Below, piece by piece: positions 1-12,776 of a DNA stretch of 64,000 bases. Both the position numbers and the translations under genes were made by a program. The notes beneath the pieces were generated by a model, which saw nothing but the letters and a program-made list of their open reading frames with translations, did not search any database and was not told where the DNA came from. The stretch is from contig JAIXOX010000135.1 of the NCBI GenBank assembly GCA_027486555.1, positions 2,802 through 66,801 of the forward strand, given 5' to 3'. The DNA comes from Comamonadaceae bacterium. Its GTDB lineage: Bacteria > Pseudomonadota > Gammaproteobacteria > Burkholderiales > Burkholderiaceae_C. Each line of letters starts with the position of its first letter. Positions within the stretch are counted from its first letter, which is position 1.

Positions 1-18
1 GCGAAGCAGTCGTTCCAT
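1..18 (-). CDS. 5' fragment of a gene running off the window (MERLLR...), possibly AlpA-family regulator/excisionase
   Basis: AGGAG RBS (26-30, minus) 7 nt upstream of ATG at 18; MERLLR resembles AlpA N-termini; only 6 codons visible. Confidence 0.3.
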
Positions 19-29
19 GTGTTTTCTCC

Positions 30-743
30 TTAAATTTGTTCAGTTGTTGAAACCACAACCAGTTGAAGTCGTGGCGGGTTGGGAGAGGTTGCCTTCAACA
101 GCCCCGCCGACTTGAGCGCCAGCATCTTGTCAATGGTCCTCAGGTAATCACGGACATCCCGATTGCTGCCGGTGTATTTCTCCAGATTTTTGATGACCTC
201 CGCCAGCGTCATAACAACTCCCTCCTGCTGAAGGATGTACTGGGCACGGGGCGCAAATTCAGTTGGCGAAATCTGCGTGAATTCGTATTTGTCACAGCGT
301 GAGCGGACGGCTTTTTCAAACTTCATCGGGTCATTAGTCGTGAAAATCACCATCAATTGGTCCTTGTGATCGTCCATGAGCGTCCACAGGCGATTGAGGC
401 TATTTCTGTATTTGTCCAACTCATGAAACACCACTACACAGCGCTGGTGCTGTGAGTCACCAAACCAATGGATCGTGTTGGACAGATAGTTGCTGAGGTC
501 ATTACGACCAAGAAATTTCTCAATGGTGTCTTGAATGAACAGGCAAGAATTCCCGGTAAGTACTTTGGCAACCAGATTGGCGATGGTCGATTTTCCATTT
601 CCGTTTGAGCCATAAAGCATCAAATTGTCACAGGAATATCCTCCCGAAACAATCGCTTTTATAAAAAACTCAGTGTCCGGGTCATTGAAAACTACATCAT
701 TGATGGTCTGCGGGGCATACTTGATCTCGGTGCGAATGGTCAT
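30..743 (-). CDS. Clamp-loader-like (RFC small subunit / T4 gp44 / DnaX N-terminal type) AAA+ ATPase
   Basis: N-terminal KYAPQTINDVV, Walker A GSNGNGKST, degenerate Walker B VVVFHELD, sensor-1 FTTN, SRC motif AVRSRCDKYEF. Confidence 0.8.
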   Translation of the reverse strand: MTIRTEIKYAPQTINDVVFNDPDTEFFIKAIVSGGYSCDNLMLYGSNGNGKSTIANLVAKVLTGNSCLFIQDTIEKFLGRNDLSNYLSNTIHWFGDSQHQRCVVVFHELDKYRNSLNRLWTLMDDHKDQLMVIFTTNDPMKFEKAVRSRCDKYEFTQISPTEFAPRAQYILQQEGVVMTLAEVIKNLEKYTGSNRDVRDYLRTIDKMLALKSAGLLKATSPNPPRLQLVVVSTTEQI

Positions 744-769
744 TTATCTCTTTCAATTTGGTTGATGAC

Positions 770-799
770 GGCACACATGGCAGCATTGCCCTGTGTGCC
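770..799. other. Intercistronic stem-loop between the 259-aa gene and the ATPase
   Basis: GGCACACA-t-GGCA-gcat-TGCC-c-TGTGTGCC; no clear U-tract on the minus strand. Confidence 0.5.
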
Positions 800-806
800 A
801 TATTGA

Positions 807-1586
807 TCAGGCTGCTTTGAGTTCCAGTTCTTCGGCGGACTGGATGAACTTTTCGGCTTCGGCATTCAGTTGGCTCTTCTCATCATTGGTGGCCTTCCAT
901 GTTCGGGCGGCGCTACGAACCAGCGATTTGTAAACGCCCGTTTCGATACCCTCAACAACACAGACGATCTTGAATTCGCCGTTCAAGCCGGGCTGGGTAA
1001 TCAGGGCACTGATCTTTTGCGAGTTGTAGCCCGTGATGGTCAAGGAAGCCAAAGGCTTGTTGTTGCGCTGGTCGATCACAGCGTTGAGTTTTGCCACCGT
1101 CGCTTCCAGTTCTTGACGCTTCGCCTTTTTCTCTTTACTCTCTTTGGTCAAATGGGTAACGCCATCAATGCCATGGTTCTCACGAAGCCAGACAGCAAGT
1201 TCGGTCGGTTTCACATTGAACTTCTTGGCGACCTCAACTGCCTTTTGGTAGCAGAGCACTCGCTTACGGTCGCTCTTGAAGACATAACGGATCAACAAGC
1301 CCAAAACGCTGGAGTTGCTCTGAACACGAACCCCCGACTGGGTCAACTTGCTGGCGATTTCTTGGCGAAGTGCCAAGCGCTCCTCAGAGGTGCGATTGAT
1401 GAATGATTTTTCATAGAAACCATAGACTTTTCCGAGCAATCCATACAAGGCTTCGGTAGCAGTCTGGTAAAGTGTTTTTTCCCAAATATCACGCTCACCC
1501 GACAATTCCTCCAATTGCTCAATGGCTTTGTTGGTGTAGATCTGGATGGTCTTGGCGACCGTTTTGGGTTTATTGGCTGCTTTCAC
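807..1586 (-). CDS. Hypothetical protein, 259 aa, helical N-half
   Basis: Long ORF, GTG start with AGGAG 6 nt upstream, co-oriented with the ATPase; no motif recognised. Confidence 0.75.
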   Translation of the reverse strand: MKAANKPKTVAKTIQIYTNKAIEQLEELSGERDIWEKTLYQTATEALYGLLGKVYGFYEKSFINRTSEERLALRQEIASKLTQSGVRVQSNSSVLGLLIRYVFKSDRKRVLCYQKAVEVAKKFNVKPTELAVWLRENHGIDGVTHLTKESKEKKAKRQELEATVAKLNAVIDQRNNKPLASLTITGYNSQKISALITQPGLNGEFKIVCVVEGIETGVYKSLVRSAARTWKATNDEKSQLNAEAEKFIQSAEELELKAA

Positions 1587-1601
1587 TTCATTCTCCTGGA
1601 G

Positions 1602-1674
1602 TCGTCGGCGGTAAGTAACTCACTCACACTTGTTTTGCCGACAAATTGAATTCTGGAAACCTATGCGCCGACGA
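1602..1674. promoter_or_regulatory. Divergent promoter region with inverted repeat
   Basis: TCGTCGGCG (1602-1610) and CGCCGACGA (1666-1674) are exact reverse complements; a third related half-site TGCCGACA lies at 1636-1643. Confidence 0.45.
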
Positions 1675-1685
1675 TCTCGGTCAGG

Positions 1686-2672
1686 ATGACTTCTATTGAT
1701 GCCAGCCAAATGATCTATTCATCAAACAATGACGAATACGAGAAGCCCCGTCAAAAGGGCATGGACCAGTTTGGGCATGCCACCATGGATGAAGAAGTTG
1801 CCGATGCCAGCAAAAGCATCCGGCGCTGGTGGTGGGAGTACTTAAGGCTAAGCAAGGACTACTGGCTCCTGTGCCAAACGACAAAGGGTGGCATTCCTGA
1901 GACTTATGATCAGCGATTGGCCCAGATCTATTGGGACTTCGGCAATGTCCACGACTGCTCGTTCGACGAGTGGTGGCGCCGGACAGGGTCTGAGTTGTTT
2001 AGAGAGCAGCGACTTCCGCCCCGTGTTCAGCAAATCACATCGGTTGAAAGTGCCATTTCAGGTGATCGGGCGGGGAAAATTCTTGTCGAGATTCCGCTTC
2101 AACTGAGCAAGGAAACGGTTCAAAAACAGATAAACGGCATTCTTGAGCTCTATCAGGACAAGCGGCCATCAAATCGGTTGGAAACCAGCACCTCTCGATA
2201 TCCGATCAATGTCACCTTGGCCCGTTTGAATGTGCTCCAGAAGTCACATGAGGTGTTCTGCCTTCACCGTGAATTAATTGCTAAACCAGCGGCTATGTTG
2301 AAGTCAAATAGAAGCCGTTTAGACATAGAGTTTCAAGAGCGGGCAGACCTTTTCAAGATCGGCAAAGCACTTGGAATCAGTCCATCCAACGAGCGGCTGA
2401 CTGGCACGAAAGAAGAGATCGACCGCCGTGCCAACAGCATGAGACAGATGGTCTGGGTTCACATGAAAAGAGCCAAGGCGCTGATTGCCAATGTCGAGCA
2501 TGGTGTGTTCCCAGACGACGAAATGCCTGAGATGACACCACCTCGGTTTTCGACTAAGCAAGAAGCCCAACACAAGGAACTTGAGGCTCAGTGGTTGTCG
2601 TTGGACCTGTCGTCATCACTGAGTGAGAAAAAACTGGCTTTAGCACGAAGAATTCATTACGATGGCAATTAA
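1686..2672 (+). CDS. Putative FseA-like (DUF6499/DUF2285-type) transcriptional activator; start codon uncertain
   Basis: N-terminal WWWEYLRLSKDY resembles the WAWEFLRRNPDY motif; C-terminal HTH-like LFKIGKALGI...VWVHMKRAKALIANVEHG. ORF is solid, function is inferred. Confidence 0.55.
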   Translation: MTSIDASQMIYSSNNDEYEKPRQKGMDQFGHATMDEEVADASKSIRRWWWEYLRLSKDYWLLCQTTKGGIPETYDQRLAQIYWDFGNVHDCSFDEWWRRTGSELFREQRLPPRVQQITSVESAISGDRAGKILVEIPLQLSKETVQKQINGILELYQDKRPSNRLETSTSRYPINVTLARLNVLQKSHEVFCLHRELIAKPAAMLKSNRSRLDIEFQERADLFKIGKALGISPSNERLTGTKEEIDRRANSMRQMVWVHMKRAKALIANVEHGVFPDDEMPEMTPPRFSTKQEAQHKELEAQWLSLDLSSSLSEKKLALARRIHYDGN

Positions 2673-2675
2673 TAC

Positions 2676-2708
2676 ATTGTGAGCGTCTAAAAATAGGACG
2701 CTCATAAT
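2676..2708 (+). terminator. Probable intrinsic terminator separating the island core from the AT-rich cargo
   Basis: 12-bp stem ATTGTGAGCGTC/GACGCTCATAAT (one G-U pair), 9-nt loop, followed by TTTCTTCTT, starting 4 nt after the stop. Confidence 0.55.
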
Positions 2709-2741
2709 TTCTTCTTACCTGGCAATAAATGAGGAGTTGAG

Positions 2742-3842
2742 ATGGCTACGGAAGCAGAGAAAGAAAAATATCTTAGAAGCAAATCATATGCCCTGATCTA
2801 TTGGCACTCCAGTTACCAGCACCCTTTGAAGCACTTACATGATTTTCTTCTTAATGAACAAGATGAGTCTATTATCATTTCCGCTCGGTCTGAGGCTTTG
2901 ATATTTAATGATCTATATTACATCAATAGCAGTGTCGAACTTGAAAATCCTGTTTATGGAACGGCTGGAGCACTTTCTGGTAAATGTAGCAGATTAGATA
3001 TTTATTTTTGGCTTTGCTCATCGCCGATAAAGGATGTAAAAAAACTGCTAAGAAGCAATAAATCGGTCAGATCGATAATTTCTGAAATATTCAAATGCTA
3101 TAACGGCTCTATTAATGATTTTTCAACAGCCCTATTCCTGGTTGATATGAAAAATAAAAATGCTGAGGATTTGAATTTAATTTTTAAAGATTTTAAAATT
3201 TTACAGTGCTTAAAAATAGTTTGCGGAGGGGTGGAAGTTGTTTATGAATATTTACTTTCAAATTTCATATATGAAAATGAAAATCAATATGATATTTTAA
3301 GGGGCTCCCATCTCTTACATGATGAGAAAGGGGATGCCAAAATAAAAATATTCCCAGAATATCCTTCAAGTACAAAATCAAGTGAAGTATATTTTTCTCC
3401 CATTTACCAATTTTCGAAAAATACCGATTTATTTCATCTCACACCTCAAAAAATGGAGGAATATTATGATGATTATGGTTTTTCATATACCAAGAAGGGA
3501 GGAAGTTATCCTTACTATAGATTGAAATTGAATTATGTAGAAAAGATTAATCATGAATTTATAATCCCCCAGAGAGTGTATGAAATCTTGACACAGGAGC
3601 AATTGGAGAAATTGGAGTCATCTGCTGCTGACACATTGGATCGTTTTTTAATCTTTATATTCGATAATGTATTTGGATACCGTTATAAAGATATTACCTC
3701 CAGTAATGTAGAAACCATTGTATCAAACGGAAAGTGCTGGAATAATGATATGTATGAGATACTTGGCGGCGATGGGAGTGACTCTGTATATCTTGGAGAT
3801 GGTTTGTCAATTGATAAAAATGGAAATATTGTTGATGATTAA
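2742..3842 (+). CDS. Hypothetical AT-rich protein, 366 aa, with acidic Gly/Asp-rich C-terminal motif
   Basis: GAGGAG RBS at 2731-2736; ~30% GC (18/60 in the line at 3121); ends YEILGGDGSDSVYLGDGLSIDKNGNIVDD. Confidence 0.8.
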   Translation: MATEAEKEKYLRSKSYALIYWHSSYQHPLKHLHDFLLNEQDESIIISARSEALIFNDLYYINSSVELENPVYGTAGALSGKCSRLDIYFWLCSSPIKDVKKLLRSNKSVRSIISEIFKCYNGSINDFSTALFLVDMKNKNAEDLNLIFKDFKILQCLKIVCGGVEVVYEYLLSNFIYENENQYDILRGSHLLHDEKGDAKIKIFPEYPSSTKSSEVYFSPIYQFSKNTDLFHLTPQKMEEYYDDYGFSYTKKGGSYPYYRLKLNYVEKINHEFIIPQRVYEILTQEQLEKLESSAADTLDRFLIFIFDNVFGYRYKDITSSNVETIVSNGKCWNNDMYEILGGDGSDSVYLGDGLSIDKNGNIVDD

Positions 3843-4012
3843 ATTTAAGTAGGAATTAAAGATTTAAAAAATTACTTGAGGATATTTAATTTCCCCCACT
3901 TTGATGAATCTTAATAAATTAGGCCAACCATCGAAATCGATTTTTACGGATTCTATAGTTGGCCAGTTGAGTGAATTCACGTGAAATAGTTTTACTTAAA
4001 AAAAAATTCTAT

Positions 4013-5446
4013 CTATTCCTGACTCGCAATGAAAAGATTATCTTTGGCTCTTGTGAGTGCGACATAGTTAAGCCTAGCGTCATTTCTCAATAACCAATCA
4101 TCACCTCGACTTAGGTTGACTAGGGCAGCATTAGATACACCCATTCCTTTAGATGTATGTATGGTTTGAACATAAACTTTAGTGTCGGTTGATAAAACAT
4201 CCTGACGGTGACGAAAATGTGGTACATTCATTGCCGCCAATCCACGCGATATTTTTTCACAAGTCGCTCTTGTAGGCGCCATTACAAGCCATTCTTCGTC
4301 TTTTTTACTCTCGATTATTCTCATCAATTCACGTAAAGTTAAAGGGCGAGTTTGCTTTTGAGATTGATTGGTTTTGTCATTGTTATCTAGCAATACTTTG
4401 TTTATAACGCGACCATCATTATTGGAATTTGGATTGTCCGTCCATATCTTTTTCTTTCTTGAATTATAAGAATCAAGATTGATATTGTTATCAACAAATA
4501 ATTTAATATTTTTAGGAATTCTCCATGATATAGATAGCACTTCATCAGGCAGTGTTGTTGGAAATTCATTAAATAATTTTGGCGAAGCACCGAATGACTC
4601 CATAATTGCTTGATCATCGTCCCCACCAAGGATTGTCTCTTTCGCATTAGTTGCTAGTTTTTTTACTACATCCCACTGTAAGGCGCTTAGATCCTGTGCT
4701 TCATCAATAATTAGCAATTCAAACGTTGGTATTTTTTCTTTTGGAAATGTTTCTTTGGCAACTGAGAAGATCACGTCGTTGAAGTCAGCCAAATTATTTT
4801 TTTCTTTGAAATACTCATATTCTTTGTAATATTTTTGAGCAAACTCTTCAACTTCACCATCAAGAATTTTCCTCTTATAATAATTACCAAGGAGCATTTG
4901 GGCATCACTAAATGACTTTCCAAAAAATTCTGGAGAATCTCTTTTCTTATTAAACATGATGCTGTATTCGCTTAGCACTGGATGTATTGGCCTAACGACA
5001 ACACTGGTTGGATCTCCGGCTCGTAACCACTCCTCTCTAGCACCAATATTAAGATCGAATTTCTGTAAATGCTCTTTTTGACATAGTTGCTTTCCCTCTG
5101 TGCCACCCATTCTAGTTGTCAAACTGTGTAGAGTTGAAAAATTAGTGAATCTTGATGTGGGTATTTTTAATTTTTCAGATATTTTGTCTCTTGCCTCATC
5201 GGCAGCAATATTTGTAAAAGCAAAATAACCAATATTTTCCGGCATAATGCCATGATTAATTGCTTCTGTCGCAATTCTCACAAGTTCTGAAGTCTTTCCT
5301 GTTCCTGGTGGACCATATATTCTTCTGCTTGTTTGAAATTCCCAATTAATTCCCAAGGGAAAGTCAGAAGAAAATGTCTTTTCCATTGAATCTTGAAGGT
5401 TCATTTTGTGATTTCTAGTTGGTGTGGCTTTAATGAATATTTTCAA
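4013..5446 (-). CDS. Compact superfamily-1 UvrD/Rep-like helicase lacking most of the 2B domain
   Basis: Motifs I GPPGTGKT, Ia FAFTNIAA, STLHS, DFND, II DEAQD, III GDDDQAI, IV SWR, V TIHTSKG, VI YVALTRAK; TTG start with GGGAG 7 nt upstream; ~32% GC. Confidence 0.9.
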   Translation of the reverse strand: MKIFIKATPTRNHKMNLQDSMEKTFSSDFPLGINWEFQTSRRIYGPPGTGKTSELVRIATEAINHGIMPENIGYFAFTNIAADEARDKISEKLKIPTSRFTNFSTLHSLTTRMGGTEGKQLCQKEHLQKFDLNIGAREEWLRAGDPTSVVVRPIHPVLSEYSIMFNKKRDSPEFFGKSFSDAQMLLGNYYKRKILDGEVEEFAQKYYKEYEYFKEKNNLADFNDVIFSVAKETFPKEKIPTFELLIIDEAQDLSALQWDVVKKLATNAKETILGGDDDQAIMESFGASPKLFNEFPTTLPDEVLSISWRIPKNIKLFVDNNINLDSYNSRKKKIWTDNPNSNNDGRVINKVLLDNNDKTNQSQKQTRPLTLRELMRIIESKKDEEWLVMAPTRATCEKISRGLAAMNVPHFRHRQDVLSTDTKVYVQTIHTSKGMGVSNAALVNLSRGDDWLLRNDARLNYVALTRAKDNLFIASQE

Positions 5447-5524
5447 TTTAATTCTCCCATAAAAGAAGAATTTTCACAATTCAACTGATGCTAGTTTTGG
5501 GCCATTCGGGTGATTTTCGAGTGC

Positions 5525-6724
5525 CTATAGCACTAATTTATTCATAAATTGGGACCAGTCCTCCATCAGCGTCCGGCGCTTCTCTAGGTAGTCTCCACGC
5601 TGATAGGCTGCTTCGGTCTGATCAGCCAGCGAGTGGGCCAGTGATTGTTCGATCACCTCGCGGCTGTGCCCGGTTGTCTCGCCTGCCCAGTCACGGAACG
5701 AAGAGCGGAAGCCATGAACGGTATATTGCTTGAAGCCCAATGTACCCTTTAGATAGTTGCTCATTGCCATGTTCGACAAGGGCTTGCCTTTGCCTCGACT
5801 GTCGAACACCCACGGCGAACCTTCGATTCGATTGATCGATTTCAGAACTTCAATCGCCTGATCTGACAGCGGCACCCTGTGCTCACGACCCTTTTTCATT
5901 CGTTCTTTCGGGATCGTCCAAATCGCCTTGTCAAAGTCGAACTCTTCCCACTTCGCTTCAATCGTCTCGCTGGTTCTGGTCGCTGTCAAAACACACAGGA
6001 GCAAGGCTTTTGCCGACAACACTGGCGTGATACCAATCGTCTGAAATAACGCCGGGATCTGAGCGTACGGCATCGCGGCATGGTGCTTGACTCGCTGACG
6101 CTTGCTGATTGACGGCAGCAAGTGAGCCAACTTGCCTTTCCATATTGCTGGGTTGTCGCCTGTTCTGTGCCCTGACACAACAGCCCAGTCCATGATGCTT
6201 TCAATACGACCTCTGAGCCGTGTTGCCGTCTCGTTCTTTGTTGTCCAGATTGGCTTGAGAATTTCCAGCACCTGCTCAGTCGTTACCTCTGAACATGCCA
6301 AATAACCTATGACCGGATTGGCATAGGTTGTGATCGTGTTCGTCCACTGATCAGCGTGTTTAGCGTTTCGCCAGCCGTGTCGCTTTGTCTCAATGTAAAT
6401 TTGGGCGGCTCGTTGAAAAGTCATGACATCACTGGCAGCGGCAGCCGCCGCCTGAATCTTGCTTCGTTCAACTCGGGGATCACCACCTTGACGAACCAGT
6501 CTGTGGTGTTGAACTGCCGTATCCCTTGCTTCGGCCAGAGAGACATCCCTGAGCGGACCCAGACCAATCGTGTTCTTGCCGCCAGCACCCCAGCGAAAGA
6601 TCCAACTCTTGTTTGGCTGGCTCGGGTCGGGTGAAGTCTGAACCTTGAGGTACAGCCCGCCACCGTCAGCGTGAAGGCCGACCGTCTTAATTGACCTGAT
6701 TGAAAGCGCTGTTAGTTTGCCCAT
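5525..6724 (-). CDS. P4-like tyrosine integrase with N-terminal arm-DNA-binding domain
   Basis: ADGGGLYLKV N-terminus; catalytic residues TATRTSE (R), MK, HGFRSSFRDW (HxxR), SLAH, AAYQR (Y). Confidence 0.95.
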   Translation of the reverse strand: MGKLTALSIRSIKTVGLHADGGGLYLKVQTSPDPSQPNKSWIFRWGAGGKNTIGLGPLRDVSLAEARDTAVQHHRLVRQGGDPRVERSKIQAAAAAASDVMTFQRAAQIYIETKRHGWRNAKHADQWTNTITTYANPVIGYLACSEVTTEQVLEILKPIWTTKNETATRLRGRIESIMDWAVVSGHRTGDNPAIWKGKLAHLLPSISKRQRVKHHAAMPYAQIPALFQTIGITPVLSAKALLLCVLTATRTSETIEAKWEEFDFDKAIWTIPKERMKKGREHRVPLSDQAIEVLKSINRIEGSPWVFDSRGKGKPLSNMAMSNYLKGTLGFKQYTVHGFRSSFRDWAGETTGHSREVIEQSLAHSLADQTEAAYQRGDYLEKRRTLMEDWSQFMNKLVL

Positions 6725-6734
6725 GATGACCCTA

Positions 6735-6767
6735 TATCTTGAATTCCAAGATACATTCTAAGACACA
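6735..6767. promoter_or_regulatory. Putative integrase arm-type/operator sites
   Basis: Inverted repeat TATCTTG-N5-CAAGATA (6735-6753) and direct repeats AAGATACA (6748-6755) / AAGACACA (6760-6767) just upstream of int. Confidence 0.4.
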
Positions 6768-6823
6768 CTAATGAGCAAAACGCTGTAGGATTCGGCTGGA
6801 CAAACAAAGATCAATGAAATTCG

Positions 6824-6836
6824 TAAGTCCTTGATT
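6824..6836 (-). promoter_or_regulatory. IHF binding site in the att arm
   Basis: Reverse complement AATCAAGGACTTA matches the consensus WATCAANNNNTTR exactly. Confidence 0.7.
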
Positions 6837-6905
6837 TGTATAGAGTAAATTTGATTTATTGGTTGCTATTGAACAGCGCTGGACAACATAGTAGAATGAC
6901 GCCTG

Positions 6906-6913
6906 CTCCGCCA
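6906..6913 (+). other. Possible att core: displaced tRNA 3' end (CTCC-G-CCA, Ser-like discriminator G)
   Basis: CTCCGCCA lies 5 nt before a bidirectional terminator and ~180 bp from int; no complete tRNA upstream; only 8 nt, so weak on its own. Confidence 0.4.
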
Positions 6914-6918
6914 GAAAG

Positions 6919-6950
6919 AAAAAAAGCCTGCACATGTGCAGGCTTTTTTT
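6919..6950. terminator. Bidirectional intrinsic terminator
   Basis: Perfect 32-bp palindrome A7-GCCTGCACATGTGCAGGC-T7. Confidence 0.85.
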
Positions 6951-6958
6951 CGTCTTGA

Positions 6959-7015
6959 CTTGCCCTGTCATGGATTGACCAAGACAGGGCAAGATCGCCG
7001 ATTTAATCGGCGATC
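6959..7015. repeat. Two further tandem hairpins 3' of livK
   Basis: CTTGCCCTGTC/GACAGGGCAAG (6959-6993) and GATCGCCGATT-t-AATCGGCGATC (6993-7015). Confidence 0.7.
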
Positions 7016-7023
7016 AATGCAAA

Positions 7024-8193
7024 TCAGCGAACCACAGCGATCTGTGAACGCTCGCCACCTTTGTAGGTGTAAATGGTCAAAGCGCCATTCTTCACATCGC
7101 CTTTTTCGTCAAAGGAAATGTCGCCGGTCACGCCTTTGTAAGTGATGCTCTTGAGAGCAGGCAGGTACTTGGCTGGATCAGCGGAGCCTGCGTTGACCAT
7201 GGCTGTGGCCATGATTTTGACAGCGTCGTAAACGTAAGGAGCGTACACCTGGACGTCCGCGTTGTACTTGGCCTTGAAGTCTGCGCGGAACTTGTCCATG
7301 CCCACTTTTTGCTCGCCTTCAACGCCACCGGCTTCAGCGCAAACCACAGCTTCGTCTTTCATGGCGTCGCCAGCCAGTTTGGCCAATTCAGCGGTGCAGA
7401 TGCCATCGCCACCCATGAACTTGGCTTGAATGCCCAAGGACTTCATTTGACGCAACATCGGGCCAGCCACAGCATCCATGCCGCCGAAAAACACGACGTC
7501 GGGCTTCTTGGCCTTCAAGGTGGTCAGGATAGAGTTGAAGTCAGAGGCTTTGTCGGTGGTGAATTCATGACCAACGATGGTGCCACCAGCAGCAGTAACG
7601 CTCTTTTTGAACTCTTCGGCCACACCTTGGCCGTAAGCGGTGCGGTCATCGATCACGGCGATGTTTTTGCCCTTGAGCGTCTCAACGGCGTATTTACCGA
7701 GTGTGCCGCCCAAATGGACGTCGTCAGCCACCACGCGGAACGCACCGGCGTAACCTTGGCGTGTGTACTTGGGGTTGGTGGCCGATGGTGAAATTTGAGG
7801 AATGCCCGCAGTGTTGTAAATCTGTGAAGCAGGAATGGTGGTACCGGAGTTCAGGTGACCGATCACGCCATTGACTTTGGCGTCCACCAGTTTCTGGGCA
7901 GCAGCAGTGCCCTGCTTGGGATCAGCTGCGTCATCTTCAGCCAGCAATTCGAACTTGACGGCTTTATCGCCGATCTTCAGGCCAGCAGCATTGAGCTCTT
8001 CGATGGCCATGCGAGCGCCATTTTCGTTGTCTTTGCCCAAGTGGGCGATTGCGCCACTGACAGGGCCTACGTGACCAATTTTGATCACTTGAACGTCAGC
8101 CACGGGGGCTTCTTTTTTACCGCAAGCTGCCAAGGCAACAGCGGCAACAGCAACAGCCACAACGGTCAAAGTACGATTACCAGAAAATGTCAT
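7024..8193 (-). CDS. livK: Branched-chain amino acid ABC transporter substrate-binding lipoprotein
   Basis: Lipobox LAAC, KIGHVGPVSG, GHLNSG, DRTAYGQG and YDAV motifs. Confidence 0.9.
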   Translation of the reverse strand: MTFSGNRTLTVVAVAVAAVALAACGKKEAPVADVQVIKIGHVGPVSGAIAHLGKDNENGARMAIEELNAAGLKIGDKAVKFELLAEDDAADPKQGTAAAQKLVDAKVNGVIGHLNSGTTIPASQIYNTAGIPQISPSATNPKYTRQGYAGAFRVVADDVHLGGTLGKYAVETLKGKNIAVIDDRTAYGQGVAEEFKKSVTAAGGTIVGHEFTTDKASDFNSILTTLKAKKPDVVFFGGMDAVAGPMLRQMKSLGIQAKFMGGDGICTAELAKLAGDAMKDEAVVCAEAGGVEGEQKVGMDKFRADFKAKYNADVQVYAPYVYDAVKIMATAMVNAGSADPAKYLPALKSITYKGVTGDISFDEKGDVKNGALTIYTYKGGERSQIAVVR

Positions 8194-8298
8194 AAAAACT
8201 CCAAAGAATAAATTGCTTCAATCAAGCAACTCCTTAAGATACTTCAAAAACGACATCTTGTGACTCAGGGAAAACCAAATTTCTCTTTGAGAAAATGG

Positions 8299-8574
8299 CT
8301 AAAGCGGTCTATTTTGGTAACTTTCGCTGCGCTTGCGCCAGAGTTCTTGAAGGGTTTGTTGCACCAATTGCGCCGTCATGCGGTCCAACTCGGGCCGCAG
8401 ATTCTGAATCAGCACGCCAGACAGATCGAGCAGCGCTTGTTTTTCTGCCATCCTGGCATCTAAAGCCAGTTGCAGTGCGGTCGGGAAAGAGTCAGGTTGA
8501 AGGCGGTCAGTGAGCAAAGGAATTGGCCCAAGGTGCGGATGTGTGGCGTTTTTTTCAGTGCTGCCTTCGCTCAT
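8299..8574 (-). CDS. Small hypothetical protein coupled to holC
   Basis: 4-nt overlap with the holC stop; IPLLTD motif then an amphipathic helix. Confidence 0.55.
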   Translation of the reverse strand: MSEGSTEKNATHPHLGPIPLLTDRLQPDSFPTALQLALDARMAEKQALLDLSGVLIQNLRPELDRMTAQLVQQTLQELWRKRSESYQNRPL

Positions 8575-9005
8575 GTTTCAGCCTTTTTTGAAAGATCGTG
8601 CTGTTCCAGATCAAACCCTTGAGCTTTGTAATGTTTCCACCGATGACGCGCCTCGGAGAGGCCATGCTCATCCTTGGCAACGACTTCTATCAATCGTTCA
8701 AATCGCTCAAATGCTGGAGGCACTTGGTCACCGAGATTGATCAGAACGGTCAAATCGTGTCTTTGCAAGGCCTGTTCGCCCAAGAACAAGGCGCTGGCTT
8801 GCTGCACCAAGGGTGGGTCATCCGAGGTGCAATGCGCCAAAAATTCAGTCTCAGAAAACGACCAAAGTGCTTGATCCAAGCGTTGCAGAGTGCTGGCTTC
8901 ACCGAGCACAGCCACTCGAAATCCTTGCAACCGCGCCTTGCGCAATAAGCGGCTGGTGTAAATCAAACGTTCTTGGGTATTGAAATGGAATTCAATGCGC
9001 GTCAT
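8571..9005 (-). CDS. holC: DNA polymerase III subunit chi
   Basis: MTRIEFHFN start at 9005, LDQALWSFSETEFLAH, INL, RLIEVV, ARHRWKHY; adjacent to pepA. Confidence 0.9.
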   Translation of the reverse strand: MTRIEFHFNTQERLIYTSRLLRKARLQGFRVAVLGEASTLQRLDQALWSFSETEFLAHCTSDDPPLVQQASALFLGEQALQRHDLTVLINLGDQVPPAFERFERLIEVVAKDEHGLSEARHRWKHYKAQGFDLEQHDLSKKAET

Positions 9006-9037
9006 AGATGGAATGGACTCAGTCAGCTCGAACCCAC

Positions 9038-10543
9038 TCAAGCGACCTTTCGCTTGGCTTTGGTTTTGACTGTGCTTGTCTGCTGTGGCGTTGTCTTGGC
9101 TGCGGACACCAAATATTGCAGGAGTAATCCAACAGGACGACCAGTCGCACCTTTTGCAGCCCCACTGCGCCAGGCGGTCCCAGCAATGTCCAGGTGCGCC
9201 CAAGCAAAAGACTTGGCAAAGCGTTGCAAAAATTTGGCCGCAGTGACCGAACCAGCAGCACGACCTGCTACGTTGGCGACGTCCGCGAATTTGGATTTCA
9301 AACCCTCGGCGTAGTCGTCGTCCAAGGGCATGCGCCAGCAGGTATCGCCCGCTGTTTCACCGGCTTGGTAAATTTCTTGAGCGAGCGGGTCATCGCTTGA
9401 AAACAAGCCCGACCTGACTGCACCCAAAGCGACGACGCAGGCCCCTGTGAGGGTGGCGATGTCAATCACCGCCTTGGGTTTGAATCGCTCAGCGTAGGTC
9501 AAGGCATCACAAAGAACCAGTCGGCCTTCTGCGTCGGTATTTAGAATTTCAATGGTTTGCCCACTCATGCTGGTGACCACATCGCCGGGTTTGACGGCCT
9601 GTCCATCGGGCATGTTTTCAGTGGCAGGTATGAGCCCAACCACGTTGATGCTTGGCCTGATCTCACCCAAAGCTTTGAAAACCCCCAAAACACTGGCAGC
9701 ACCGCTCATGTCGTATTTCATTTCGTCCATCTCGGGGGCCGGTTTGATGGAGATGCCGCCGGTGTCAAAGGTGATGCCTTTGCCCACCAGGACAACGGGC
9801 GCTTGAGCGGCAGCAGCACCGTTGTAGCGCATCACGATGAAGCGCAATGGTTCCGATGCACCTTGCGCCACGGCCATGAAAGCCCCCATGCCCAACTTGG
9901 CGACTTCTTTAGGGCCTAACACGTCGCATTTAAAAGAGCGTCCGGTGGCAATGCTTTGAGCTGCTTGGGCCAATTGTGTGGGGGTAGCGTGGTTTGCCGG
10001 ACGGTTGGCCCACTCTTTGGCCACTTCAATACCGCTGACCAAGGCCTGTGCGTAAGCCACACTCTCTACCGCATCGGCTTGTACCGAGGTCAAACTGACC
10101 TGCACTTGCTTGAGGCTGCGCAATTTGGGCTGACTCAAGGTGGTGGCGTAACTGTAAGAGGCATCGGCGAGGCTGACCAATGCGGCTTGAATGCTTTGCG
10201 ATGCACAATCACCGGCCATGTGGATGCCCAAATGCTTGATTTTAAAAGACTTCAAGCACAGCCAAGCGGCTTGAATGGCGGCACGAACGGCGCTGGGCGA
10301 GTTGTCTGCACTGCAAACCACCACCACATGCCGCGCTTTGATGTCTGGGTGCGCGTAAAGTGCAAGGGTGCTGTTGGGCTTGAGCTCAAAATCCCCATTT
10401 TTGCAGGCTCCACTCAAAAGACGCGAAATGGGGTCCGTTGCGGCGGAGTCAGGCAAGGTGGCGTCAGGCCACAAAAAAATCAAACCGTCAAAATCGCCCC
10501 GTGTGACAGATAAGAGCGTCCGCTTTTGGATTTCGAAGTTCAT
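9038..10543 (-). CDS. pepA: Leucyl aminopeptidase (M17)
   Basis: GKGITFDTGG, MKYDMSG, NTDAEGRL, ATLTGA. Confidence 0.97.
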   Translation of the reverse strand: MNFEIQKRTLLSVTRGDFDGLIFLWPDATLPDSAATDPISRLLSGACKNGDFELKPNSTLALYAHPDIKARHVVVVCSADNSPSAVRAAIQAAWLCLKSFKIKHLGIHMAGDCASQSIQAALVSLADASYSYATTLSQPKLRSLKQVQVSLTSVQADAVESVAYAQALVSGIEVAKEWANRPANHATPTQLAQAAQSIATGRSFKCDVLGPKEVAKLGMGAFMAVAQGASEPLRFIVMRYNGAAAAQAPVVLVGKGITFDTGGISIKPAPEMDEMKYDMSGAASVLGVFKALGEIRPSINVVGLIPATENMPDGQAVKPGDVVTSMSGQTIEILNTDAEGRLVLCDALTYAERFKPKAVIDIATLTGACVVALGAVRSGLFSSDDPLAQEIYQAGETAGDTCWRMPLDDDYAEGLKSKFADVANVAGRAAGSVTAAKFLQRFAKSFAWAHLDIAGTAWRSGAAKGATGRPVGLLLQYLVSAAKTTPQQTSTVKTKAKRKVA

Positions 10544-10566
10544 AATTGCGCTTTTCCTTTTTGCCA

Positions 10567-11673
10567 ATGTTATTCCATTCCACCCTGCGCAAAGACCTTG
10601 CGCGCAATTTTGGTGCTGCGCTGGTCATTCTGGTGACCATTGTGATGACCATCACTTTGATCCGGACGCTTGGCCAAGCCAGTCGAGGCAGCGTCAACCC
10701 TTCTGACGTGGTGTTGGTCATGAGCCTGAGCGTATTGGGGCAAATGACGACCATTGCCACTTTGAGTTTGTTCATCACCGTGGTTGCCACCTTGTCGCGC
10801 ATGTATGCAGACAGTGAAATGGTGATCTGGTTTTCAAGTGGGCGAGGCCTGGGCAACTTCATTTGGCCCCTTTTCCGATTCACTTGGCCCATTTTGACCA
10901 TGATTGCCATGCTGGCATTGTTCATTTGGCCTTGGAGCAACCAGCAAGTAGAAGACCTCAAGCAACGCTTTGAGAAACGCAATGACGTTGAGCGCATTGC
11001 ACCCGGTCAGTTTCAAGAGTCAGCGGGAGGCAATCGGGTCTTTTTTATCGACAAGGACAGCCCTGGACAACAATGGGGCAACAACGTTTTTGTTTCAAGT
11101 CGTGATGGCAGCACGGAAAGTGTCACCACCGCCACCCAAGGACGCATAGAACGGGTGGGACCTGACCGATTTTTGCTGCTTGAAAAAGGACAGCAATGGT
11201 GGACGAATTTGGTCAGTGGCGAAACCCGTTTGACTCAATTTGAAAAATACCAGTTGCTGATTGACTCTGACGCAGTGGTGGCAGGCGATCGCAGCAACAG
11301 TCGATTGAAGTCCACGCTTGAATTGATGCGGGACTTTACGCCCACTCACCAAGGCGAGCTGTCTTGGCGTCTGGGCTTGAGTCTTGCGGGCATCAATTTG
11401 GTTTTGATCGCTTTGGCCATGTCTGCAGTCAATCCCAGAGCAGGGCGCAGCTACCACCTGGGTTTGGCTTTGTTTGTCTTTATCGCTTACTACAACTTGC
11501 TGAGTGTGGGGCAAAACTGGATTGCAAATGGGCGGGTAGGCTTTGGCTCTTTCATGGTTCAACTGCATGGCGGGATGTTGCTCTTGGCCTGCATATGGCT
11601 GGCTTTGCGGCACATGAATTGGACTTGGCGAAGCTTGTGGCGTCGTGTTGCGCCGACAGGAGGTGCCGCATGA
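10567..11673 (+). CDS. lptF: LPS export ABC transporter permease LptF
   Basis: Divergent from pepA, six-TM pattern, DSEMVIWFSSG, ELSWRLG. Confidence 0.9.
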   Translation: MLFHSTLRKDLARNFGAALVILVTIVMTITLIRTLGQASRGSVNPSDVVLVMSLSVLGQMTTIATLSLFITVVATLSRMYADSEMVIWFSSGRGLGNFIWPLFRFTWPILTMIAMLALFIWPWSNQQVEDLKQRFEKRNDVERIAPGQFQESAGGNRVFFIDKDSPGQQWGNNVFVSSRDGSTESVTTATQGRIERVGPDRFLLLEKGQQWWTNLVSGETRLTQFEKYQLLIDSDAVVAGDRSNSRLKSTLELMRDFTPTHQGELSWRLGLSLAGINLVLIALAMSAVNPRAGRSYHLGLALFVFIAYYNLLSVGQNWIANGRVGFGSFMVQLHGGMLLLACIWLALRHMNWTWRSLWRRVAPTGGAA

Positions 11674-12776
11674 AAACGGTCCGAACTCTGCTGCACGGCG
11701 AAATTTTTCGGGCCGTTTTATTTGTGTTGGCTGGTTTTTTGGCTTTGTTTTTGTTTTTTGACCTGGTTGACGAACTCCAAGCCCTCGACAGGTATGCGTC
11801 TCAAGGCTATCGCATGCAGCATGCCTTGTTGTTCATTGCGCTCAAAACGCCCAACCATCTCTACGAGTTGATGCCCATTTCGGTCTTGATTGGCAGCATT
11901 TTTGTGATGGCCCGGCTGGCGCAAAGTTCTGAGTTCACCATCTTACGAACCGGGGGACTCGAGCCATGGAAGGCACTGAACCTGCTCCTTCAACTTGGTT
12001 TGATTTTTGTAAGTCTGACGTTTCTCTTTGGTGATTACGCGTCACCTTGGGCCGAGCGCCAGGCCCAACACATCAAAACAAAATTTCAGGGCAACTTGAC
12101 AGTCGGCCAGACGGGTGCTTGGCTCAAGGAAAAACAAGATCAACAACAATTTGCGGTCAATGTACGTCGATTTGATGGCATTGCACAGATGCAAGACATT
12201 CGCATTCATGCCTTTAACAGCCAGGGTCGTTTACTCTCGATCACCACAGCAGCAACAGGGGAAATCCTGCCAAACGAATGGCAATTGAAACAAGTTCAAG
12301 AAAAAACACTGCTCAACGAGCCGTCAAATGGACTTGAAAGATACCAAGCCCTGCAGCACGCCCAGTTGACGTGGAAGACCACGATCAGCGCAGACATGGT
12401 GGCAGCGGCCTTACTCAGCCCGGACACCATGAGCACTTGGGATCTGTTCAATTACATGCGGCATTTGACAAGCAACAAGCAAAATGCCCAGCGGTATGAA
12501 ATTGCGTTTTGGCGCAAGGTTTTTTACCCTTTGAGCTGCTTGGTGATGCTGGTCCTCGCCATGCCCTTTGCTTATTTGCACTTTCGCTCTGGACAGATTG
12601 CAGGCCATGTTTTTGGTGGCGTTCTTGCAGGCATCAGCTTCACATTGCTCAACAATGTTTTCGGTCACATTGGGAATTTACAAAATTGGCAACCGTTGCT
12701 CACGTCTGCTGCACCGGCTTTGATTTACAGCGCCATATCTTTGGCTGCTTTTTGGTGGATGGTGTTGAGGCGATGA
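11670..12776 (+). CDS. lptG: LPS export ABC transporter permease LptG
   Basis: ATGA overlap with lptF; LAQSSEFTILRTGG, GAWLKE, FWRKVFYPL. Confidence 0.9.
   Translation: MKTVRTLLHGEIFRAVLFVLAGFLALFLFFDLVDELQALDRYASQGYRMQHALLFIALKTPNHLYELMPISVLIGSIFVMARLAQSSEFTILRTGGLEPWKALNLLLQLGLIFVSLTFLFGDYASPWAERQAQHIKTKFQGNLTVGQTGAWLKEKQDQQQFAVNVRRFDGIAQMQDIRIHAFNSQGRLLSITTAATGEILPNEWQLKQVQEKTLLNEPSNGLERYQALQHAQLTWKTTISADMVAAALLSPDTMSTWDLFNYMRHLTSNKQNAQRYEIAFWRKVFYPLSCLVMLVLAMPFAYLHFRSGQIAGHVFGGVLAGISFTLLNNVFGHIGNLQNWQPLLTSAAPALIYSAISLAAFWWMVLRR

Follow-up and report, generated by a model that had tools for sequence, protein, structure and literature searches.

We report that positions 1-2672 of a 64,000-nucleotide stretch of DNA from a Comamonadaceae bacterium (assembly GCA_027486555.1, contig JAIXOX010000135.1, positions 2,802 to 66,801; this whole stretch is referred to as the window) constitute the conserved core and control module of an undescribed family of approximately 10-12 kb islands, which are inserted at tRNA genes in freshwater Burkholderiales. 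The module comprises the gene for a 328-amino-acid (aa) protein, A328, and, divergent from it, an operon encoding a 259-aa orphan protein, U259, an AAA+ ATPase of clamp-loader type and, in the lineage of the window, an AlpA-like protein. As judged from sequence comparisons, A328 is very probably a highly diverged member of the FseA/RovC superfamily encoded by a single open reading frame (ORF). Regulators of this kind have so far been known from conjugative elements and a type VI secretion system (T6SS) locus, and they are recognised via two Pfam domains; the A328 family suggests that the FseA/RovC fold extends much further than the Pfam models, i.e. to about 1,000 regulator clusters (50% identity), with at least 693 homologues of the orphan partner, all annotated as hypothetical proteins. 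Moreover, the regulator appears here to be wired to a different output, namely an orphan protein that resembles DNA-binding proteins and an ATPase of clamp-loader type, and the 99-bp control region together with cultured carriers provides a testable entry to how minimalist islands excise, replicate and move.

Probable kinship of A328 to FseA and RovC

The A328 family includes 246 close relatives, all of them annotated as hypothetical, and an exhaustive profile search recovered 995 representative clusters at 50% identity. The family shares the invariant motif RRWWWEYLRLSKDYW, and since this resembles AWEFLRRN, which forms the alpha-2 helix of DUF6499 in FseA (PMC10359603), the kinship of A328 to FseA was examined by profile-profile comparison. 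As reference, metagenomes were scanned for DNA encoding AWEFLRRN, and the ORFs obtained in this way gave an alignment of 37 FseA-like sequences. All 37 match PF20109 (former DUF6499), 24 of the 37 match PF10074 (DUF2285), and the profile of the set matches RovC (6XZ5) at 1e-22 and QseM (7UQT) at 8e-7; because of these matches the reference alignment was considered valid.

Using hhalign, the close A328 family aligned with the FseA set with a P value of 1.3e-3 and the distant A328 family with a P value of 1.9e-5 (probability 78%). For the separate domains, the N-domain of A328 against bona fide DUF6499 gave P 1.9e-7 (probability 93.7%), and the C-domain compared directly with DUF2285 gave P 2.3e-3 (probability 12.5%) in the expected register. 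The corresponding cross-domain controls gave P values of 0.46 and 0.67, and decoys (reversed, column-shuffled or unrelated) gave values between 0.1 and 0.96.

The AlphaFold model of A328, generated with 23 homologues (pLDDT 80, pTM 0.77), is all-helical. It has an N-domain at residues ~25-110, in which W49-W50-E51-Y52-L53-R54-L55-S56 is placed within a predicted helix at 45-55 (WWWEYLRLS), a variable mid-region, and a C-domain at ~181-285, modelled as a helix (211-229), a 12-residue loop and a second helix (242-271). Taken together with the alignments, the N-domain is predicted to be DUF6499-like, with the WEYLR helix corresponding to AWEFLRRN, and the C-domain is, remotely, a predicted DUF2285-like extended-turn helix-turn-helix (HTH) in the same reading frame as the N-domain.

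Two residues connect these domains in FseA. Arg37 and Asp210 form a contact that FseA cannot do without and that is also seen in the crystal structure of RovC (PMC10359603), and hhalign aligns them with positions 55 and 192 of A328. In an alignment of 241 A328-family sequences these two positions covary; Leu-Cys is present in 106 sequences, Arg-Asp in 25 and mixed pairs in three, which supports a homologous contact with altered chemistry. The Leu-Cys versus Arg-Asp swap would represent a natural experiment on this interdomain contact. The 25 Arg-Asp members (the RD subgroup) carry the motifs YYWWWEYLRRN and L.VYD. Their profile matches the A328 family with 100% probability (E 7e-39). In the FseA set it matches the DUF2285 region with 92% probability (P 6e-7), and the N-terminal motif comes up as a second alignment. 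Because of its matches to each of them, the RD subgroup connects the A328 family and the FseA-like set, and the covariation and the presence of this subgroup inside the A328 family appear to us to be the strongest evidence for FseA kinship.

Several observations weigh against this assignment. A328 has no match in Pfam, NCBIfam, PHROG or PADLOC, and A328 together with 22 close relatives gave nothing against Pfam even at E<=10. Among 76 distant family members PF20109 was the only recurrent Pfam signal and it remained below threshold (at most 20.0 bits; cut-off 23.8), and PF10074 gave no match. Foldseek searches with the A328 model against PDB gave nothing at E<1, RovC 6XZ5 was absent among the best 50 of 88 Foldseek matches, and no fold similarity to either RovC 6XZ5 or QseM 7UQT was found. 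Likewise, HMM-to-sequence searches of PDB with the profiles A1, A2 and A6 found neither RovC nor QseM, such that profile-profile comparison was the only method that joined the A328 family to FseA/RovC. Finally, A328 itself has Leu55 and Cys192, i.e. the Arg-Asp salt bridge essential in FseA is missing. A preliminary description of the same DNA had called A328 a single-ORF relative of FseA. Its 328 codons do form one reading frame, and the FseA-like call is carried by the profile-profile alignments and the covariation; curated hidden Markov models (HMMs) gave it no match, and Foldseek none at E<1. Of the results that the preliminary description had named beforehand as speaking against its reading, the one on the structure side was thus obtained.

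As to the distribution of the family, a search of plasmids with A328 gave two marginal matches in Bradyrhizobium, and tblastn of A328 and U259 against 50,697 phage records gave no match.

The control region between the A328 and U259 genes

The spacer between the two divergent genes contains an exact 9-bp inverted repeat, TCGTCGGCG (1602-1610) and CGCCGACGA (1666-1674), with 9/9 complementary positions 55 nt apart, and it extends imperfectly to 1595-1610 and 1666-1685. Inverted repeats of at least 9 bp arise in 0.7% of dinucleotide-shuffled spacers and in 3% of the 99-bp windows in the 64 kb, and the repeat alone is thus moderately unusual, not striking. It is better described as part of three in-phase CCGAC hexamers (Table 1); GCCGAC/GTCGGC occurs three times in 70 bp of the spacer compared with 64 times in the 64 kb.

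In an alignment of six close relatives (A4) the right-arm block GTGCGCCGACGATCTCGGTC and the middle CCGAC are invariant. The left arm has one uncompensated mismatch in locus L145 and two in L142. An invariant right block and middle box combined with a tolerant left arm fit protein-binding boxes better than a base-paired RNA stem. No sigma-70 consensus promoter was found in the spacer, as expected for activator dependence, and the right arm ends 6 nt from a -35-like TTTCCA (4/6) on the minus strand, which makes the geometry compatible with activation of the leftward operon. Two points count against the repeat as the regulator's target: the mismatches in the left arm, and that the same inverted repeat was not found in distant subfamilies, where other palindromes, or none, were detected. 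Different palindromes in distant subfamilies would be expected if box and protein co-evolve.

The spacer of a subfamily with 56% identity (L001:9701-10000, L009:9545-9997) is 300-450 bp and has tandem duplications of ~150 bp, each with the palindrome GAACTCAT-N5-ATGAGTTC. In Polynucleobacter-type spacers, inverted repeats of ATTAAC type directly precede the regulator gene. We also considered a fimS-like invertible promoter flipped by the small recombinase described below. This was rejected, as none of the six aligned spacers is inverted; moreover, the segment between the arms is only 55 bp and the recombinase is degenerate in the lineage to which the window belongs.

The conserved partners of A328

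A homologue of U259 is divergent from the A328 homologue in 16 of 16 loci, followed by the ATPase gene in 15 of these, and the RD-subgroup loci L148 and L149 are included. A fourth conserved gene, which adjoins the regulator gene in most loci, encodes a tyrosine recombinase of ~188 aa (roughly 180-190 aa) that has a catalytic domain and no other. In the Limnohabitans-type lineage, which includes the window, the C-terminal half of this protein is without the HxxR and Tyr motifs; in the arrangement of the window the gene is situated to the left of it. The gene order in the RD subgroup is integrase, ATPase and U252, then, on the other side of the divergence, regulator and small recombinase, plus DUF6641. 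We conclude that the deeply conserved partners of A328 are U259, the ATPase and the small tyrosine recombinase.

The third operon gene belongs to the AlpA family, as had been proposed from its first six codons. Two contigs of the same strain (L146 and L147) extend its product to 38 aa, which is 97% identical to AlpA of L008, and the full-length 63-aa L008 orthologue scores 27.8 bits on PF05930 (cut-off 21). An alpA gene ends the operon in seven loci, all in the Limnohabitans-type lineage with a P4-type integrase; this integrase is encoded in five of the seven, and the remaining two loci are short contigs without an integrase gene. Other lineages carry other tyrosine integrases, and in more distant loci no alpA was found after the ATPase gene, which weighs against excision as the function of the module as a whole. 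Specifically, as alpA is missing beside the ATPase gene in distant loci, excision control cannot be the ancestral role of the module; as it is limited to the P4-integrase lineage, the operon is not primarily the "excision operon" of the preliminary description; and since U259 and the ATPase are the constant partners, the conserved target of the regulator would be the U259-ATPase unit. AlpA is, we conclude, a later, lineage-specific passenger that arrived with the integration module.

The clamp-loader assignment of the ATPase was borne out by HMM matches, motifs and identity to phage proteins. It matches PF00004 (1e-12), dnaX_nterm (3e-13), the RFC small subunit (3e-9) and the PHROG 168 clamp loader (2e-25), and is ~25% identical to clamp loaders of T4-like cyanophages and to dnaX. 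Its motifs include an RFC box II-like N-terminus (KYAPQTINDVV), Walker A (GSNGNGKST), sensor 1 (TTN), the SRC arginine finger within VRSRC, and a conserved Arg of sensor 2. At Walker B (residues ~117-121) the sequence is FHELD, i.e. His-Glu, where most relatives have Asp-Glu and L001, L009 and L011 have Asn-Glu; the motifs other than Walker B are intact. The protein aligns solely to the N-terminal parts of the dnaX and RFC models, has an AAA+ module and lid without collar, and stops after the lid. No other loader subunits, as partners for a pentamer, and no clamp gene were found on the island. By its sequence the ATPase is a true clamp-loader-clade AAA+ protein (the clade of the RFC small subunit, DnaX and T4 gp44).

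U259 has no family match in Pfam, NCBIfam, PHROG or PADLOC, where only sub-threshold noise was obtained, and none of its homologues has a Pfam domain; they share the invariant motif LLIRYVFKSDRKRV. The AlphaFold2 model (pLDDT 82) is helical with a beta hairpin and gave no Foldseek match at E<0.4 against PDB and BFVD. In this model residues 93-142 resemble an HTH and lead into a long, coiled-coil-like helix, and a sub-threshold match is IS3 OrfA-like (E 0.005); the weak match and the pattern of predicted helices point to an HTH with a coiled coil after it.

Locus layout and the island

The ORF listing and direct reading of the sequence bear out all coordinates of the 1-2672 layout (Table 1), including the 99-bp spacer and the exact 9-bp inverted repeat. 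The gaps in the minus-strand operon are 63 nt (U259-ATPase) and 11 nt (ATPase-alpA), and no convincing terminator was found inside the U259-ATPase-alpA operon.

Table 1. Features of the module and the island. Positions refer to the window unless a locus is named.
Feature	Positions	Strand	Comments
Start of alpA, last operon gene	1-18	-	ATGGAACGACTGCTTCGC (MERLLR); 6 codons, remainder left of the window
AAA+ ATPase gene (237 aa)	30-743	-	ATG 743
U259 gene (259 aa), first of operon	807-1586	-	GTG 1586; AGGAGA 5 nt upstream
Divergent spacer, 99 bp	1587-1685		Between U259 and A328 genes
CCGAC-core hexamers	1604-1609 (GTCGGC), 1637-1642, 1667-1672 (GCCGAC)		Centre spacings 33 and 30 bp, ~three helical turns
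A328 gene (328 aa)	1686-2672	+	ATG 1686, stop 2672; monocistronic
Intrinsic-terminator-like hairpin	2676-2708	+	13-bp stem and T-rich tail; ends the A328 unit ahead of low-GC cargo
Low-GC two-gene cargo	2742-5446		Orphan gene (+) and SF1 helicase gene (-), see next two rows
Orphan gene (366 aa)	2742-3842	+	
UvrD/GajB-like superfamily 1 (SF1) helicase gene (477 aa)	4013-5446	-	PHROG 1967 4e-58; PADLOC DRT RTasHel 4e-27; GajB 3e-19
P4-type tyrosine integrase gene (399 aa)	5525-6724	-	Arm-DNA-bind_3, Phage_int_M and Phage_integrase domains
attR core	6900-6915	+	CGCCTGCTCCGCCAGA; island end; host SBP gene next
Small tyrosine recombinase gene	L012:10951-11517, L008:6733-7272, L148:4292-4858		PF00589 4e-24 in L012

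The nearest genome locus, L008 (Limnohabitans sp. Jir72), has the same gene order as the window and also the same host gene on the right-hand side; its A328 homologue is 80% and its integrase 93% identical. The L008 island is 10.47 kb and has a 16-bp direct repeat, CGCCTGTTCCGCCAGA, at both ends, of which one copy forms the 3' end of tRNA-Ser(gga) and the second is situated beyond the integrase gene. The attR core in the window differs from this repeat by one mismatch. The three domains of the integrase and direct repeats that correspond to a tRNA 3' end, as in L008, are those of a P4-type island. For DNA to the left of the window, a look-up of the exact A328 product gave no record, the same-strain contigs, which were found via U259, add 114 nt, and L008, L142 and L145 serve as proxies. 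Window 1-6915 is the right two-thirds of a ~10-kb integrative island at a tRNA-Ser gene. The preliminary description had proposed to look leftward for attL; the integrase gene and attR lie on the right, within the window, and only attL and the tRNA-Ser gene lie further left, and a scan of window positions 1-12000 gave no tRNA gene. Host genes start at 7024, to the right of the island.

That homologues of the module co-occur with integrases, as had been anticipated, is seen in discrete islands bounded by tRNA genes. Five more islands have direct repeats at tRNA-Ser(gct), tRNA-Ser(cga), tRNA-Cys, tRNA-Met and tRNA-Phe, and are 10.3, 11.65, 11.5, 10.1 and 12.6 kb, respectively. In L142 two islands are arranged in tandem with one att site common to both. 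The orientation of the alpA-AAA-U259/A328 module relative to the integrase and tRNA genes is inverted between L001-type islands and those of the window and L008 type. The carriers are freshwater Burkholderiales (Limnohabitans, Polynucleobacter and Zwartia), among which these small, size-constrained islands appear to move defence genes.

The six bounded islands (L001, L008, L010, L012, L013 and L014) vary between 10.1 and 12.6 kb despite different integrases, tRNA targets and cargo, and this narrow range suggests a size constraint on packaging or transfer. A serine resolvase gene is present at the tRNA-proximal end in L142 (L142:7893-8470).

Proposed mechanism and alternative explanations

The mechanism that we favour, and to which we give about an even chance, is that an FseA/RovC-type regulator acts on the shared spacer and controls U259-ATPase-alpA, that AlpA aids excision, and that U259 and the ATPase act in the DNA transaction of the element. 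Specifically, an A328 oligomer would bind the in-phase CCGAC hexamers, by parallel to the FseA and RovC sites, and binding would switch on a weak leftward promoter and with it the joint production of U259, the ATPase and AlpA. AlpA would help the P4-type integrase to excise the island, and after excision U259 and the ATPase would carry out the element's DNA transaction, most likely replication or the loading of replication factors from the host. A helper phage, a conjugative element or a host signal could act as the trigger. That A328 activates and does not repress, and that excision or replication is affected, is what we infer; a role as excision switch is plausible. It counts against this mechanism that no gene for a replicase, a relaxase or capsid hijacking and no oriT was recognised.

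FseA activates the promoter of the excisionase gene rdfS and binds inverted-repeat hexamers, 22 bp apart, directly upstream of the -35 element (PMC10359603), and RovC, the activator of a divergent operon, protects 39 bp from -70 to -32, with the DNA proposed to wrap the hexamer (PMC7535981). As both are activators that bind upstream of -35 (PMC10359603, PMC7535981), and the spacer is without a consensus promoter that would need repression, we consider it unlikely that A328 is a maintenance repressor in the manner of cI or Stl, silencing U259-AAA-alpA and possibly itself until a helper or stress inactivates it. The compact divergent layout of two units, which is classic for mobile-element switches, would agree with such a repressor; each of the two start codons has an outer arm only 12-16 nt upstream, within any possible 5' untranslated region, a position that suits repression as well and as such weighs against activation, and no part of the spacer is more conserved than the right-arm block, which overlaps the region where A328 translation starts. 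That A328, U259 and the ATPase are unrelated to mobility and represent regulated cargo, e.g. for defence or abortive infection, with the 9-bp repeat being incidental, seems improbable to us. Across the islands the module forms an invariant backbone and it is the cargo that varies, the place of the module by the integrase or the small recombinase is fixed across integrase families and tRNA targets, and no PADLOC model matches A328 or U259.

We regard it as the least probable alternative that the inverted repeat works in RNA, such that a U259 mRNA starting at ~1685 has a leader hairpin which partly hides AGGAGA and controls translation or stability. The RNA from the minus strand of the spacer is predicted to fold with -34.2 kcal/mol (z -3.0; one of 200 shuffles as stable) and the stem extends to CAGG of the ribosome-binding site; the plus-strand fold is unexceptional (z -1.4), the uncompensated mismatches in L142 and L145 break the stem, and the promoter would need to sit inside the A328 coding sequence. 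Beyond activation of the U259-ATPase unit by an FseA-like regulator, it is a serious possibility that the backbone defines a hitch-hiking element family of a new kind. In its full form this idea is possible, if rather doubtful: the regulator, U259, the collar-less ATPase and the ~188-aa recombinase (plus DUF6641) would be the backbone of unrecognised, abundant hitch-hiking elements of 10-12.6 kb, where U259 and the ATPase form a novel machinery for replication or for exploiting a helper, which recruits the host clamp or polymerase, and the regulator senses the helper.

Comparison with known systems

Like FseA (Msi172-Msi171 of ICEMlSymR7A), A328 would have an N-terminal helical domain with (A)WE[FY]LR, a variable middle and a C-terminal extended-turn HTH, its gene belongs to an integrative element and adjoins an operon with a gene of recombination directionality factor type, and hexamer repeats at integral helical-turn spacing are present in its putative target region. 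Unlike FseA, A328 is 328 aa long with an extra C-terminal helical extension, requires no frameshift, falls below the Pfam thresholds and has Leu55-Cys192; the operon consists of the orphan and the clamp-loader-type ATPase instead of rdfS-traF-msi107, and the hexamers are 30-33 bp apart compared with 22 bp for FseA. No rdfS, type IV secretion system, relaxase, quorum-sensing genes or QseM-type antiactivator were found in the window or in loci L001-L021 and L142-L150. Conserved 81-aa and 127-aa island ORFs were considered as candidates for a QseM-like antiactivator and rejected, as hhalign against DUF2285 gave P>=0.017.

In similarity to RovC, the activator of T6SS4 in Yersinia pseudotuberculosis, A328 neighbours an operon that faces it, and the wrapping model would fit three hexamers over 69 bp; A328 is however encoded on a mobile island and RovC at a chromosomal T6SS locus. 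The islands also resemble PIME1, GIsul2 and BcenGI2 in being small islands of tRNA or guaA type, with a P4-like integrase, alpA, a divergent second regulator and defence-rich accessory regions, and excision and replication of PIME1 need a divergent alpA/luxR pair (bioRxiv 10.64898/2026.01.12.698999). PIMEs are, in contrast, defined by int, alpA, repA/repC and trbJ/trbL (with traJ or traI), and none of our loci has a recognisable replicase or trb/tra homologue; moreover, PIMEs are ~22 kb and their divergent regulator belongs to the LuxR family, whereas the one here is FseA-like. With P4-like, PICI and PICMI satellites the islands share the P4-type integrase and AlpA, tRNA insertion, tandem arrays and a narrow size; as far as size is concerned, the likeness to satellites lies in the 10.1-12.6 kb range only. 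No hallmarks of P4-like, PICI, cfPICI or PLE satellites (pri-rep/alpha, psu/sid/delta, terS or capsid) were found, and the PHROG scan gave the clamp loader and the helicase only. The element falls outside the definitions of FseA-type integrative and conjugative elements, PIMEs and the known satellite families. A literature search found no description of the element family; in full text, no paper on DUF6641 and none that joins clamp loader, AlpA, integrase and island was found, and DUF2285 or DUF6499 is named in only three.

Cargo and the right end of the island

The cargo (2742-5446) has a GC content of 30-36% compared with about 50%, and is a candidate two-gene defence system. A helicase 73% identical to that of the window is encoded directly after the A328 homologue in L009.

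Direct repeats of CTGGACAA are present at 6796-6803 and 6879-6886, between the start of the integrase gene and attR, with another copy at 6241-6248; the window has 11 copies in total compared with 2.8 expected. In L142, the next island has similar copies (CTGGACAA, CTGGACCA and CCAGACAA) at its tRNA-proximal end, and the CTGGACAA repeats are probably arm-type sites of the integrase. A search against Rfam gave only sub-threshold matches, at 6917-6999 and to the Thr, Leu and Phe operon leaders (30-36 bits; cut-offs 50-55). They fall on a GC-rich hairpin with a T-run that separates attR from the SBP gene and is most likely a bidirectional terminator.

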